Shown here: piece by piece, positions 2,933 through 8,706 of the stretch
Position numbering within the stretch: the stretch's first letter is position 1
How the letters are laid out: the number at the start of each line of letters is the position of its first letter
Translations under genes and position numbers: made by a program
Notes under the pieces: model-generated
The model's input: only the letters and a program-made list of their open reading frames with translations
What the model was told of the DNA's origin: nothing
Database searches by the model: none
Assembly (NCBI GenBank): GCA_951406725.2
Contig: OX597818.1
Span: 86,862,001 to 86,926,000, forward strand
Reading direction: 5' to 3'
Origin: Octopus vulgaris
Lineage: Eukaryota
DNA length: 64,000 bases

Positions 2933-2980
2933 GACAGTGAGTTCGAAGTTTCGGCCAGTTGAGCCATCATCAGACTGCGC
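2933..2980 (-). ncRNA. type I hammerhead ribozyme motif (Penelope/retrozyme-type), one helix-III mismatch
   Basis: minus strand gcagt CTGATGA tggct caact ggcc GAAA cttcgaac TC actgt: helix I cagt/actg, helix II ggct/ggcc, palindromic ttcgaa in helix III. Confidence 0.7.
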
Positions 2981-3360
2981 TACATCATCCGTCACACATA
3001 TATAAATTATATTCATAAGCATGTGTGTGTGCGTTTGTGTGTGTGTGTGTGTGTGTGTGTGTGTGTGTGTGTGTGGTCCAAAAACGAGATTGTTGGATAG
3101 TGTCCACAGTCTCCGTACGTCCATACTAGGGAATTCATACGGAAATTGTCATGGTAGTGCATATGCTAAGACCCAATGAAGGATATGCCTGACGACTCAA
3201 CCTTCCACAACCGTCACAGGAATAATGGGCTGAGATGTGTGTGTGTGTATGTATGTATGTATGTATGTATGTATGTATGTATGTATGTATGTAGTGAAGC
3301 AGATAAATACGATTAGGCTTGATATTCGCTATAACTGACCGCTAGCCACTAAAGCATTTT

Positions 3361-3520
3361 TAATTCTCACTCTGTATATTTTCTCGTGTTCCTTTCTGTT
3401 GAAGAGTGTAGGCTCGAAATGTAAAAGGCTTTCACATCTTCCCGAGCGTCAAACTAATACATCTGTTTGTTGTTTACACACCTGTCTTTCTCATTTGTTT
3501 TTTGTAAATTCCAACTATAT
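3361..3520 (+). mobile_element. Penelope-like terminal-repeat fragment with a degenerate minimal hammerhead (3391-3428)
   Basis: ccttt CTGTTGA agagt gtag gctc GAAA tg TA aaagg: 5-bp helix I, 4-bp helix II; downstream gagcgtcaaactaatac resembles motifs in the copies at ~7075 (-) and ~8685. Confidence 0.6.
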
Positions 3521-3618
3521 GTATACACACACACACACACACACACACACACACACACACACACACACACACACACACACACACACACACATATATATAT
3601 ATGTATTCTTTTATTTTC

Positions 3619-4140
3619 TCTTTTACGTGTTTCAACCTTTTGACTGTGGCAATGCTGCAGCACCAACTTAGAGGAATTTAAAAATCGACTCCAGGACTTA
3701 TTTTTTGTAAGCCTAGTACTTATTCTATCGGTGTCTTATACCTAACCTCTAAGTTTCGGGGACGTAAACACAGAAACATTGGTTATCAAGCGATGGTGAG
3801 GCGGGGACAAACACAGGCTCGAAGACACACACACATTAAGATATATATATATATATATGGGCACAGGAGTGGCTGCGTGGTAAGTAGCTTACTTACTAAC
3901 CACATTGTTCCGGGTTCAGTCCCACTGCGTGGCACCTTGTTGTGGGTGGATTTGGTAGACGTAAACTGAAAGAAGTAAAAGAATAAAAATATAAAAAGAA
4001 AGAATATATATATATATATATATATATATATATATATATATATGACAGGCTTCTTTCAGTTTCCGTCTACCAAATCCACTCACAAGGCTTTAATCGACCC
4101 GCGGTTATAGTAGAAGACACTCGACCAAGGTGCCACGCAC
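3619..4140 (-). mobile_element. SINE family A (minus) with a partial plus-strand family A copy (3859-3990) nested in its central TA tract
   Basis: tail half 3619-3830 and head half 4043-4140 match other family A copies. Confidence 0.85.
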
Positions 4141-4478
4141 TAGGAGTATACATACACACGCACGCACGCACACACACACACAAATATATAATTGTTAAAG
4201 AGGATAACAATGGTCCTCTTTAACAATTATATATCCGCTATATCGGAAATCTACAATGGTTCCATAACTACCGTCTCAGCTATAACCTTGGCGTACTGGT
4301 AATCCGTTACAGCACTTACCTAGCGTACCTAGTCGTTTACATCACCTGCAAGCTAAACCCCCATACTTTGTACACACACACACACATATACATACACACA
4401 TATATGGATATGTGTTGATACAAAAACTAAATATATTCAGAAGATAAACGCATATGTACATGCATATAGATATTTATA

Positions 4479-4730
4479 TATATTGAGAAATAAATCAATT
4501 TTCCATGGAGTACAGGAAATGCAGAAAATGCCAATATTACTCCTGACGATGGAAGATAGTATTACGAGTATTTCTCTACGACACCATTTACTGGTTGCAA
4601 ATTATGAACATTACGATTATTAGGTAATGTCGCGCCTCCAGAAACAGCTGTTGAGTTAAAAACCGATGCATTTTTCCCTTAGTTTTCTTGTATTTTTTAT
4701 ACTCCATGTACAAGTGAATTTGTCAATATA
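4479..4730 (+). mobile_element. ~250-bp element with imperfect inverted arms enclosing a type I hammerhead ribozyme (4535-4657)
   Basis: arms tattgagaaat..catggagta..agaaaa / ttttct..tactccatg..atttgtcaata; core actc CTGACGA tgga[~80 nt]tcca GAAA cagctg TT gagt. Confidence 0.7.
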
Positions 4731-5242
4731 TGTTCTTGTACATATGTATTTATCTTGTGAATGCATTTAGTTTTTGAATACATACATACATACACACACA
4801 CTCACACACACACACACACACACACACACACACACACACACATATATATATATATATATATATATATATATCAAGCCTAATCGCGTTTACTTGCATCACT
4901 ATCCAAAAGCTTGTATACATGAAATGCAGGGAGTGTAAACGCCTCCCTAAAACTTTTCGTGCACCATGAGTATGCTTTGAAGATCTCCCTGAAAAACTGG
5001 ATTTGTACCTCATAAGCAAATTTCGTTCCAGCACTTATGTCGCTATCTCCGTATCAGCTCTCCTAGGTTCCTCTTTTAGCCATTCTTTAATTCCGTGAAC
5101 CTAACCCTCGATAAACACGTCAGAATTTAAGTTCAAATTAATTAAGCACTACGACTTGTTTTCTAACTTAATCATCTCTGGGTCTCATTTGTGTGTGTAT
5201 GTATGTATGTATGTATGTATGTATGTATGTATGTATGTATGT

Positions 5243-5785
5243 CCCATATTTTTGTTATAAATCGTCCACTGAGGAGGGAGCCGGTTTCCAACAAAGATAC
5301 TTTGTAGTTAACACAGACAAATTCACTGTTAGAACTTGAGAAAAGTCTTGCATATTTTTACTCTTCCACTCACAGATTGCACTTGTAATATACAAATTAG
5401 CCGGTCGATTTCTCTTTCCGAAAAATCCCAGTTTATACAGATTCTCCTTTAAGAATTTACTAACAAAACCTAGTGCTCAAATTATTATTGGTATCAATAT
5501 GAATTCATAATCCGGATATAGAAGCTGGAGGTTTCGAAGCAGTTGACCATAGATATCCTTTTTTCCTTTGATTTTCAAAGAAATATTTATATCTGCTAGG
5601 CAGATGACTTCTATGATCGTACATACCTTTGCCCCTCTGTCCCAAGTAACAATATCTGGCCAGTTATGCTTACACGTGCCAGACATTTTGGTGGGAATAT
5701 TCCACCAGTATTTCTTGACTTACAATTTTCTAAGTTTATTTCAGGACAGTCTTTTTTGCGGATGGCATTGTAAGTTGTTTTATAT
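5243..5785 (-). mobile_element. 5'-truncated non-LTR retrotransposon with restriction-like endonuclease (R4/Dong-like), 3' end; pseudogenic
   Basis: translation KHNWPDIVTWD..CTIIEVICLADINI..KKDIYGQL..LYPDYEFILIPIII*ALG matches the RLE PD-(D/E) domain and the PIIIGALG motif; in-frame stop; flanked on both sides by (TATG)n. Confidence 0.8.
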
Positions 5786-6015
5786 ATGTATGTATGTATG
5801 TATGTATGTATGTATGTATGTATGTATGTATGTATGTATGTATGTATGTATGTATGTATGTATGTATGTATGTACGTACGTATGTATGTACGTATGTATG
5901 TATGCAAGCATATAGACAGACAGACAGACAGATAGATATATATATAGATAGATAGATAGATAGATAGATAGATAGATAGATAGATAGATAGATAGATAGA
6001 TAGATAGATAGATAG
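5786..6015. repeat. (TATG)n and (AGAT)n microsatellites
   Basis: direct read. Confidence 0.95.
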
Positions 6016-6549
6016 AAGTGCTTGTATGTGTATTTGTGTGTGTATGTCAAGTCACTTGTGTATGTAGAACAAAATTAATTGTCTGTAACGTAACATATTT
6101 ACATCATGCATGTAGACAGCACACACACACACACACACACACACACACACACACACACACACACACACACACACACATTTATACACACACTATGGTATGT
6201 ACAAGCATAAATATTTCAGTCACGCTTGCACGTAAAGGCGGATATGTAAATATGCTAAGTTGTGCGAGTGCATATGTATGTATGGAAATGTGCCTCTGTG
6301 TGTGTGTGTGTGTGTGTGTGTGAGATGGGGAGAGAGGTGAATGCGAAAGTATGTGTGCGAGCGCAGAGTGAAGAGCTGAACTGAATATGATCATATCTCA
6401 TAGACAAGAAAATAACCCACGTGCTGTAGTCAAGTGGGGATTGAACTTGCATCGCCGAATTCCCCAGAGACTTACGCAAATGTTTCGAGGCGTTCTCTCA
6501 GTGCGCGTGCGGATGTGTGAGCATGTGTGTATGCAAAAATACATAGATA

Positions 6550-8300
6550 CTTAGATAAATATACATATATATACACATATACACAGAAGCATATATATAT
6601 GTACACATATATATACATACATATATATATATACATATATATATATATATATATACGTATATATATATATATACATATATATATAGATCATATACATATA
6701 CATATGCATATATATATACATATATATATATACATATATATATACATATATATATATATATACATGCATATATATATACATGCAAATATATATACATATA
6801 TATACACACATATATATACATATATACACACACACATATATATACATATATATACACATATATATACATATATATATGCATATATATATATATATATATA
6901 TATATATATATATATATATATATATATACATATATAACATATATATATATACATACATATATAATATATATATATATAATATACATATAATATATATATA
7001 TATATATAGTTAACCCAAACATGAAAACACAAAGAGAAAACACAACAGCGCGAGGACGTGGAGCAAGTGTAGTGTTATTGGACGCTCAGGAATGGAAGGA
7101 AAGAAGGAGGGTTTAACGTTTTGAGCGGAGCTCTTCGTCAGAAACATAGGAAAAGGAAAGATGCAAAGGAAGGGAAGACGGAGGAAAAAAAATCGCCAAC
7201 TGTACACACGCGGTCACATTTTATATATGCATAGTTTGCGAGCTAACTAGCAGGAGAAGAAATAAAGAGAAAGCTTATGCATTATTTCACCCCCACGCCC
7301 CGCGCGCACTTACAGATTGAAAATTTACTGTTTGTCAACGTATGAGGAAAAGCGTATTCAATATGATATTTGTTTAAACTGAATTATTTCTCTTGCTTGT
7401 CGACTTTCGCGCTGCTCCGATCATCATACACAAGAACACACACACACACACACACACACACACACACACACACACATATATATATATATATATATATATA
7501 TATATATATATATATATATATATATATATATATATATATATATAAATATGGATATGTATGTATATATAGGTATCTATCTATGTATCTATATATATGTATG
7601 TATATGCGGGTATATATATATATATGTGTGTGTGTGTGTGTGTATGTATGTGTGCACAATATATACTCATATATATGAAATAAATTTAAAGGATATAGCT
7701 CTGATAAATAACTACATAAAATATAAGATATGTATGTACATATAGGTATCTATCTATGTATCTATATATATGTATGTATATGCGGGTATATATATATATA
7801 TATATATATGTGTGTATGTATATGTATGTATATATGTATATATGTATGTATGTATGTATGTATGTATGTATGTATGTATGTATGTATGTATGTATGTATG
7901 TATGTATGTATGTATTGATATATGTATATATATATACACACACACACACACATATATATATATACATATACATGCATATATATATATATATATATGTATG
8001 TATGTATGTATGTATGTATGTATGTATGTATATATTGGTATATGTATGTATATACACACACACACACACACATATATATATATATATACATATACATGCA
8101 TATATATACATATACATACATATATATATATACGTACTTATATACATACATGTATATATACATATATATATATATATAACTTAAATATATATACTTATAT
8201 ATAAGTACATATATATAAATATGAAGATATATATATGTATATATGTGTGTGTGTGTGTATATATATATGCATACATGTATATATATTTTTGCGCATTTAT
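6550..8300. repeat. large TA/TACA/CA compound microsatellite region with a ~70-bp duplicated unit (7551-7620, 7729-7800)
   Basis: direct read; taggtatctatctatgtatctatatatatgtatgtatatgcgggt occurs twice. Confidence 0.9.
7010..7220 (-). mobile_element. Penelope-like terminal-repeat fragment with a minimal hammerhead (7111-7145) whose GAAA is mutated to AAAA
   Basis: minus strand gttt CTGACGA a gagc tcc gctc aAAA cg TT aaac; abuts a TA tract. Confidence 0.65.
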
Positions 8301-8706
8301 AATATAATGTTATATATATAGAGAGAGAGGAAGTGAGAGGAGAGAGAGAGAAAAGAGAGAGAGAGAGAGGGAGTGAGAGAGGAAGAAATACTTTGAATTA
8401 ACTGGAGTGTTATGGACAATCTTCTTTTTAACCATAAAATCGAATGTCACGGCGTGTTTTTGAATTTTCTGACATTTTTCTTTCTCTGTCACCCGCGTTC
8501 CTGTGTGTCTGCTGTCTGTCTGTCTGTCTGTCTGTTTATCTATCTGTCAATCTGTTTGTCTATCTGTCTGTTTGTCTGTCTGTCTATCTCTCTTTCCCTT
8601 TGTATGTTTTCTTCTTTCTTCTGAAGGAACACTGACATCCGAAACGTCACATTCCATCATACTCTTTTCAAGTACTCATCACAAGCGTTAAACTAACACT
8701 GTATTA

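Follow-up and report, generated by a model that had tools for sequence, protein, structure and literature searches.

Five hammerhead-derived motifs in short non-coding repeats of Octopus vulgaris, probable dependants of Penelope-like elements

A 64-kb stretch of the genome of Octopus vulgaris (2.8 Gb in 227 contigs), hereafter the window, contains five motifs related to the hammerhead ribozyme between 2.9 and 8.7 kb (sites 1 to 5). They are not due to chance, as each lies at a fixed place in a different short non-coding repeat. The five motifs are internal parts of these repeats, here named F1 to F5, four of which are abundant, with copy numbers from hundreds to many thousands; the repeats are probably non-autonomous dependants of Penelope-like elements, in which the hammerhead would cut multimers as a dimer. 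The original prediction, made from the sequence of the window, had described five hammerhead cassettes lying in or next to microsatellites and belonging to non-coding retroelements possibly mobilised by a Penelope reverse transcriptase (RT). As an observation it is partly confirmed, and as an interpretation partly supported.

Hammerhead cores in the window

A complete core accompanied by all three helices is found only at two of the five sites, namely site 1 (2934-2978, minus strand) and site 3 (4539-4656, plus strand). Sites 2, 4 and 5 have one broken invariant core position each and are not intact ribozymes, so that of the five cassettes described earlier two stand as complete hammerheads. 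The repeat copies that hold them are listed in Table 1.

Table 1. Repeat copies and adjoining features of the window, with the results of the family searches in the genome
Feature	Position	Strand	Content	First-look candidates	Identity of copies
F1 fragment (75 nt; full repeat as long as ~430 nt)	2911..2985	-	Site 1, minimal type I hammerhead 2934-2978	505	82-90% over ~65 nt
F2 copy, dispersed repeat of ~200 nt	3322..3525	+	Site 2, hammerhead-derived block 3391-3428	4027	85-91% over ~175 nt
Partial copy, in inverted orientation, of the following F3 unit's 3' tail	4409..4528	-	Arrangement of Penelope type according to excerpts of PMC8557442		
F3 copy	4531..4790	+	Site 3, hammerhead 4539-4656	248	72-81%
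(AT)n microsatellite	6555..7008	.	Adjoins the 3' end (7010) of the F4 copy, a typical junction of the F4 family		
F4 monomer, unit of ~219 nt	7010..7233	-	Site 4, hammerhead 7111-7145	2585	91-95% over ~215 nt
F5 relic, few detectable relatives, distantly F2/F4-like	8601..8720	+	Site 5, hammerhead-like block 8621-8648	Itself and one relative	77%

On the minus strand, site 1 reads GCAGT CTGATGA T GGC TCAACTG GCC GAAA CTTCGAACT C ACTGT. Its core is intact, and the palindrome of helix III (2940-2949) is interrupted by a single C.C mismatch at position 2941; from this arrangement the cut is predicted after the C at 2939. Site 3 has the form ACTC CTGACGA, 91 nt, GAAA CAGCTG T T GAGT on the plus strand, with helices I to III complete: CTGACGA (4543-4549) is followed by a helix II domain of 91 nt, GAAA (4641-4644) and the palindrome ACAGCTGT (4644-4651), H17 is the T at 4652, and helix I is formed by ACTC and GAGT.

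At site 2 the 5' strand of the core is CTGTTGA (3396-3402) instead of CTGANGA, with a T at core position 6 (3399), and helix III has become ATGT, with loss of the palindrome. The T at position 6 is a trait of the whole F2 family, unlike the CpG decay in helix III (3420), which is private to the window copy. Site 4 reads GTTT CTGACGA A GAGC TCC GCTC on the minus strand and continues with AAAA in place of GAAA, a G12>A change at 7122 by which this hammerhead is, to judge from its core, disabled; in the contigs of four public runs, C stands for T at 7122 in 93-99% of the summed depth. Site 5 begins with CTGAAGG (8621-8627, plus strand), in which A9 is replaced by G, and its helices I and II are not convincing.

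The frequency of such motifs depends on how they are described. The loose pattern CTGANGA-N4-30-GAAA-N2-30-TH has 13 overlapping matches at five places in the window, compared with a mean of 8.9 in shuffled sequences, and 29 of 100 shuffles reach 13; within the set of five sites it detects site 1 alone. A full structural descriptor requires helix I and helix II of at least 3 bp each, a palindromic or hairpin helix III, and H17. With helix II limited to 30 nt it finds only site 1 in the whole window (shuffle mean 0.01), and when as much as 140 nt is allowed site 3 is found as well (shuffle mean 0.18; two or more in 4 of 100 shuffles). Across 132 loci (417 kb), leaving aside their targeted centres, it gives 7 strict matches, 7 with U6 and 16 with U3/A8, the shuffle means being 0.2, 0.25 and 0.55, respectively. 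Equality of the motif frequency with a shuffled background, which had been named as a possible refutation, is thus true of the loose pattern but not of the full descriptor. When intact F1 and F4 copies were folded with ViennaRNA (minimum free energy), as monomers and as dimers, the hammerhead fold was not recovered, a result that is uninformative for helices so short. Among the sequencing runs that contain the stretch, none is recorded as RNA.

Repeat families in the genome

Each island was searched against its own genome and 40 candidates were scored for each of the families F1 to F4; the copy numbers reported are first-look lower bounds or exact-pattern counts, and at most 30 loci were read per family. 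Single-copy islands had been considered a possible outcome. F1 to F4 are abundant (248 to 4027 candidates), and only F5 comes close to being single. The expectation of at least three sequence families was borne out, since five were found, with F2, F4 and F5 distantly related; the homology of F5 to the other two is only suggestive, its alignment scores being 40-47 compared with shuffle maxima of 39-46. One copy of each family, always single, is present in the window. The flanks of other loci (291 kb) contain 25 further copies, one per 11.6 kb, so that five copies in 64 kb represent the usual density near such elements.

Most of the other copies of F1 and F4 preserve what the window copies have lost. 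F1 copies read CAGT CTGATGA T GGC TTAACTG GCY GAAA CTTCGAAG TC ACTG with a perfect 10-nt palindrome, in which the window copy has a single G>C change, and 9 of 20 pass the descriptor. F1 homology ends at ~430 nt, without an open reading frame, and some copies reach ~280 nt further upstream. F4 copies read GTTT CTGACGA A GAGC TCC GCTC GAAA CGT T AAAC; the descriptor is passed by 13 of 32, and position 12 is G (GAAA) in 24 of 32, a column share of 75%. Nearly all of these 32 copies have a discrete 5' end. Head-to-tail junctions of the 219-bp F4 unit gave 12 exact matches, versus none for a reversed control, and correspond to arrays of 2-3 units; the array at locus L130 comprises 2.6 units with three strict cores.

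For F3, the column majority of 20 copies is CTC CTGAYGA A GGAAGC, ~90-115 nt, GCTYCC A GAAA CAGCTG TC GAG. The long helix II of this family is credible in the genome because a relative with a short helix II, at L052, shares the flanking A's and the ACAGCTGT palindrome, and because three further loci, L104, L105 and L108, contain hammerheads of a family that has the palindrome ACGATCGT and a ~70-nt helix II domain and that scores 34-36 bits, above the cut-off of the Rfam model RF00163. This cut-off was passed by 6 of the 73 candidates scored elsewhere in the genome. Restoration of the catalytic core by the family consensus, suggested as a test of the original prediction, is therefore seen in F1, F4 and, as a column majority only, in F3, but not in F2, the largest family. 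An apparent contrast in conservation between the motif and the rest of the unit (4.4% versus 9-11% mismatch) was rejected, having been inflated by flank columns. In the per-bin profile of F2, many copies of which are 5'-truncated, the hammerhead block is conserved only slightly better than the remainder.

The structure of these motifs can be compared with that of the minimal hammerheads of metazoan Penelope elements. According to excerpts of PMC4209133, these have a short helix I, an unpaired base between positions 9 and 10.1, and a conserved G10.1-C11.1 pair, and their palindromic 15.2-16.2 positions or loop 3 allow two copies to build one extended helix III. In the octopus repeats, an unpaired base followed by helix II is present as U with GGC/GCY in F1, A with GAGC/GCTC in F2 and F4, and A with GGAAGC/GCTYCC in F3, which has an extra unpaired A ahead of G12. 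The helix III palindromes, of 4-10 nt, are ACTTCGAAGT (F1), ACGT (F2 and F4) and ACAGCTGT (F3). Helix I differs by family with pairing kept (CAGT/ACTG, CTTT/AAAG, GTTT/AAAC, CTC/GAG), and further families in the fetched loci likewise keep helices I to III with different sequences. The Penelope-type core CUGANGA...GAAA...U-H is present at sites 1 and 3, in the majority of F1 and F4 copies and in the column majority of F3; F2 (site 2), the window copy of F4 (site 4) and F5 (site 5) lack it. Judged on their sequences, F1 to F4 display all the structural traits of the Penelope minimal hammerhead. The claim of non-coding families bearing minimal hammerheads with a palindromic helix III holds for these four, which are abundant and have this architecture.

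Microsatellites and the ends of the repeats

Tandem Repeats Finder places a simple repeat within 40 nt, on at least one side, of all five sites. The share of sampled positions lying in microsatellites is 18.5% in 2500-9000, compared with 6.7% in the whole window, and the bunching of five copies in 6 kb goes with this local richness. The description of islands bounded by simple repeats is accordingly correct for at least one side of each of the five, but about 18% of 2500-9000 is microsatellite anyway; the length of 150-250 bp attributed to the islands is exceeded by two of them, which measure 380-430 bp.

A flank test gave a sharper picture for single families. For F4, (TA)4 was sought within 14 nt of the 3' end or 18 nt of the 5' end and compared with the background of the same loci: it is present at 29 of 46 3' ends and at 16 of 35 5' ends, with a background of 4.0%. 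The 3' ends of F2 adjoin (TA)n in 18 of 44 cases, versus 5.4%, so that the ends of F2 and F4 lie next to (TA)n at 8 to 16 times the background rate. The association is weak in F3 (4 of 50 versus 2.6%, p = 0.04) and not significant in F1 (2 of 14 versus 5.3%). The proposed preference for microsatellites, for which flank enrichment had been suggested as a check, thus applies to F2 and F4 and is specific for (TA)n, but it is not shared by all five.

Some other features of the same region were noted. The ~200 nt (7234-7436) that separate the F4 copy from the microsatellite following it are not repeated in the top genome matches, and 7230-7440 is without cover in the contigs of four public runs. 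Sequences that resemble copies of a tRNA-derived short interspersed nuclear element (SINE) occur at 3859-3945, 4046-4140, 8700-8880 and 8940-9100, one pair of them inverted around an (AT)n tract (4004-4043). ARAGORN called no tRNA, and no tRNA-like head, in 2000-11000, including these copies. The inverted pair gives rise to sub-threshold Rfam matches to plant microRNA hairpins. More generally, in a permissive Rfam scan of 2000-11000, the 150 rows listed of 190 are sub-threshold microRNA matches driven by microsatellites. Those at 2600-2790, 5780-6180, 6520-7000, 7440-8300 and 10280-10450 account for dozens of matches to mir-297, mir-3149, mir-466 and others, reaching up to 62 bits versus cut-offs of 75-119, all of which is noise.

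Resident Penelope-like elements

The genome harbours Penelope-like elements with their own hammerhead. Of 150 scored matches, drawn from 6136 first-look candidates, 148 count as GIY-YIG hits, many in open frames of 781 aa, and in the open frame at L115 the domains RVT_1 and, C-terminally, GIY-YIG were confirmed. A CX2-5CxxC-like linker (RKCGRPNCGIC) precedes the GIY-YIG domain in the one Penelope family examined closely. In 8 of 20 RT/GIY-YIG loci, a full minimal hammerhead with the U3/A8 core lies 450-1000 nt past the endonuclease, and a (TA)n tract follows it at a distance of 59-109 nt. It reads TTTT TTGATAA GGTTC..GAACC GAAA CATG T T/A AAA, U3/A8 replacing C3/G8. Loci bearing it include L115, L116-L123 and L127; that at L117:2525-2567, for instance, is in the orientation of the endonuclease. 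On other loci the U3/A8 descriptor gives 6 matches in 682 kb (both strands). Since these hammerheads precede (TA)n, resident and apparently intact Penelope elements share with the short repeats both the kind of ribozyme and the (TA)n target.

Inverted partial copies, a footprint of Penelope type, also accompany the short repeats. Upstream of the F3 copy of the window lies an inverted partial copy of its own tail (arms 4409-4528 and 4684-4788), and head-to-head inverted partial copies are present at 7 of 19 F1 loci. No open reading frame adjoins the family copies.

The GIY-YIG relic that had been placed at 9.6-10.1 kb of the window is not supported: Pfam detects no GIY-YIG domain (PF01541) at E<=1 in 7 open frames of 9440-10774. 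A tblastn search of the whole window with a 597-aa open frame of a resident Penelope gave nothing at E<=10, and 13 other long open frames of the window contain no Pfam domain above noise.

The F2 superfamily and core position 6

F2 deserves separate consideration for its core. Of 32 copies, 29 have T at position 6, and the exact 30-nt block occurs genome-wide 14,944 times with T6 and 158 times with A6. Among 12 copies sampled by way of sequence further downstream in the unit, 11 carry T6 and A6 is absent. The superfamily comprises at least four or five subfamilies, which differ at N7 and in their 3' tails, and all of them have T6. Its density in unbiased loci is ~1 per 27 kb. In all it has perhaps ~10^5 copies. 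At one locus (L161, G000:C1:1878302-1878479), two F2 copies of the G7 subfamily lie head-to-head ~150 nt apart, another inverted-pair insertion.

According to classical mutagenesis, substitutions of A6 should abolish the activity of the hammerhead. All four bases are common at N7, a naturally free position, among the first 100 places listed, while the one-mismatch variants at the other 29 positions of the block amount together to 3,223 (18,167 minus 14,944), which suggests constraint on the block in replicating lineages, with the reservation that exact-pattern sampling is biased. Either cleavage is dispensable for the spread of F2, or the U6 core keeps some function. That the block is a natural A6U hammerhead which has kept its cleavage activity, whether in dimers or aided by a host factor, appears doubtful; such a hammerhead would be a new core variant, and a full-text literature search returned nothing relevant on it. 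In any case, an element with a core substitution supposed to abolish catalysis has out-amplified its relatives with intact cores. This bears on a question left open in the excerpts of PMC8557442, namely whether hammerheads are needed by the elements that carry them or are merely riding.

Origin of the repeats

In the mechanism that we favour, an RNA bearing two hammerheads would come from source loci of at least two units or from read-through transcription. To judge from the anatomy and the cited papers, these would pair through the palindromic helix III and cut after H17 to yield a unit-length RNA, possibly circularised as described for animal retrozymes in the accessible text of PMC7229834. 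A Penelope RT/endonuclease may then nick (TA)n and copy the unit RNA in trans from the nick, leaving units flanked by (TA)n, some of them multimeric or accompanied by an inverted partial copy. The (TA)n ends, the 219-bp arrays of F4 and the inverted upstream copies would fit an insertion of Penelope type. The window locus itself would be a graveyard of dead copies, insertions accumulated in a stretch that abounds in target microsatellites. F4 would have lost G12 by CpG decay and F2 shows additional decay of helix III, F1 being left as a 75-nt fragment and F5 as a relic.

Several results weigh against this explanation. The check with Rfam models that had been recommended gave no match at the gathering score in the whole window, and in narrow scans of sites 1, 3 and 4 hammerhead models were absent even at E<=10. 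None of the 20 other copies of F3, an old family, passes the descriptor. In the per-bin profile of F4, the hammerhead block is conserved no better than the rest of the unit. The tandem junction of F2 gave no matches in a search of limited sensitivity with one exact pattern, and a T occupies the invariant A6 in all F2 subfamilies, so that cleavage may play no part in their spread. When the family units were compared by BLAST with 20 GIY-YIG loci, unrelated insertions were all that came up. The suggestion that a Penelope RT mobilises the repeats gains indirect support from resident elements that combine RT and GIY-YIG domains with a hammerhead and end at (TA)n, but no sequence link backs it; mobilisation in trans is something that we infer, since the families have no sequence similarity to the 20 sampled Penelope 3' regions.

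Three other origins have been weighed. The repeats might be ordinary SINE-like elements moved by a microsatellite-targeting long interspersed nuclear element (LINE), their hammerhead-like blocks being irrelevant fossils. Dispersed monomers, 5' truncation and simple-repeat 3' ends would all be expected of such elements, F2 has reached at least 14,944 copies with a core expected to be inactive, and the sequence link to Penelope 3' ends is missing. We nevertheless consider this origin unlikely: no tRNA-like head is called by ARAGORN in 2000-11000, the resident Penelope likewise ends at (TA)n, the minimal palindromic hammerhead is presented in excerpts of PMC4209133 as a hallmark of Penelope, and inverted upstream partial copies with tandem arrays are footprints of Penelope and retrozymes in those of PMC8557442. 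It is also quite unlikely that the repeats are solo terminal repeats of autonomous Penelope-like elements, or 3' ends left by their 5' truncation, which would deny them the status of independent non-autonomous families. The available part of PMC4209133 considers most dispersed single minimal hammerheads probably related to truncated Penelope elements, and both the ~280 nt of additional upstream sequence in some F1 copies and the frequent 5' truncation of F2 can be read in this sense. The discrete 5' end of nearly all F4 copies and their 219-bp arrays are at odds with it, as are the end of F1 homology at ~430 nt without an open reading frame, the unrelated insertions that were all BLAST found in the 20 RT/GIY-YIG loci, and the different type, U3/A8, of the resident Penelope hammerhead.

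The least credible source, and a very improbable one, is that low-complexity DNA matches a short degenerate consensus by chance. The loose pattern is no commoner than in shuffles and Rfam matches are lacking, while site 5 has one weak relative only and a likeness to F2 and F4 barely above shuffles. Against these points stand the matches to the full descriptor, far above the shuffles, and the recurrence of the motif at a constant place across hundreds to thousands of copies, in which the broken bases of sites 1 and 4 are restored. For sites 1 to 4, this recurrence and the descriptor excess refute a chance origin. The derivation of the repeats from dependants of Penelope-like elements, whose hammerhead would act as a dimer, thus remains the probable one.

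Comparison with known hammerhead systems

Hammerhead-bearing Penelope derivatives at microsatellites are already known, as far as excerpts of PMC8557442, PMC7229834, PMC4209133 and the preprint 10.64898/2026.07.22.740005 go. No description of the present families was found in a literature search, and the supplements of the cited papers may list cephalopod motifs.

One close counterpart is the minimal hammerhead of Penelope elements (Cervera & de la Pena 2014, PMC4209133). Its motifs are, in the accessible text, mostly single and dispersed, with some close inverted pairs, and most of the dispersed single ones are probably tied to truncated Penelope elements; activity in vitro is low and confined to dimeric constructs. 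The octopus motifs have in common with it the type I order, an open helix I of 3-5 bp and a helix III of dimer type. The U3-A8 covariant core, reported there in one lineage, Cercyon of Schistosoma, occurs here in the resident autonomous element. They differ in lying inside short (~200-430 nt) non-coding units seen apart from RT/endonuclease elements, in the helix II domain of ~90-115 nt in F3, and in the U at A6 of F2.

With the non-long terminal repeat (non-LTR) retrozymes of animals (Cervera & de la Pena 2020, PMC7229834; Li, Clavereau & Pollet 2026, preprint 10.64898/2026.07.22.740005), as outlined in excerpts, they share units that are non-coding, measure a few hundred bp and contain a single type I hammerhead. 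A proposed dependence on Penelope and a dimer-dependent helix III are further points of agreement, as are, in F4, the 219-bp head-to-tail arrays. The published retrozymes are described there as canonical, with loop-loop contacts, and mainly tandem, whereas the octopus copies are mostly dispersed monomers. A canonical type I hammerhead with a closed loop 1 and contacts between loops 1 and 2 is not what these repeats contain: their helix I, of 3-5 bp, is open and without loop 1.

A third comparison is with Neptune and Naiad, two Penelope clades biased towards microsatellites, specifically (TA)n (Craig et al. 2021, PMC8557442). In the excerpts of that paper, they resemble the octopus elements in their (TA)n ends, in inverted 5'-truncated copies upstream, and in a CX2-5CxxC-like linker before GIY-YIG, as in the resident element. 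Naiads are reported there without canonical hammerheads and with an N-terminal endonuclease, whereas the resident octopus element has a C-terminal GIY-YIG domain and a U3/A8 hammerhead. Non-coding retroelements that bear hammerheads and are associated with Penelope form a known class, to which the present repeats add cephalopod-like families with a clean genomic footprint, consisting of (TA)n at both ends, 219-bp arrays and inverted upstream copies.

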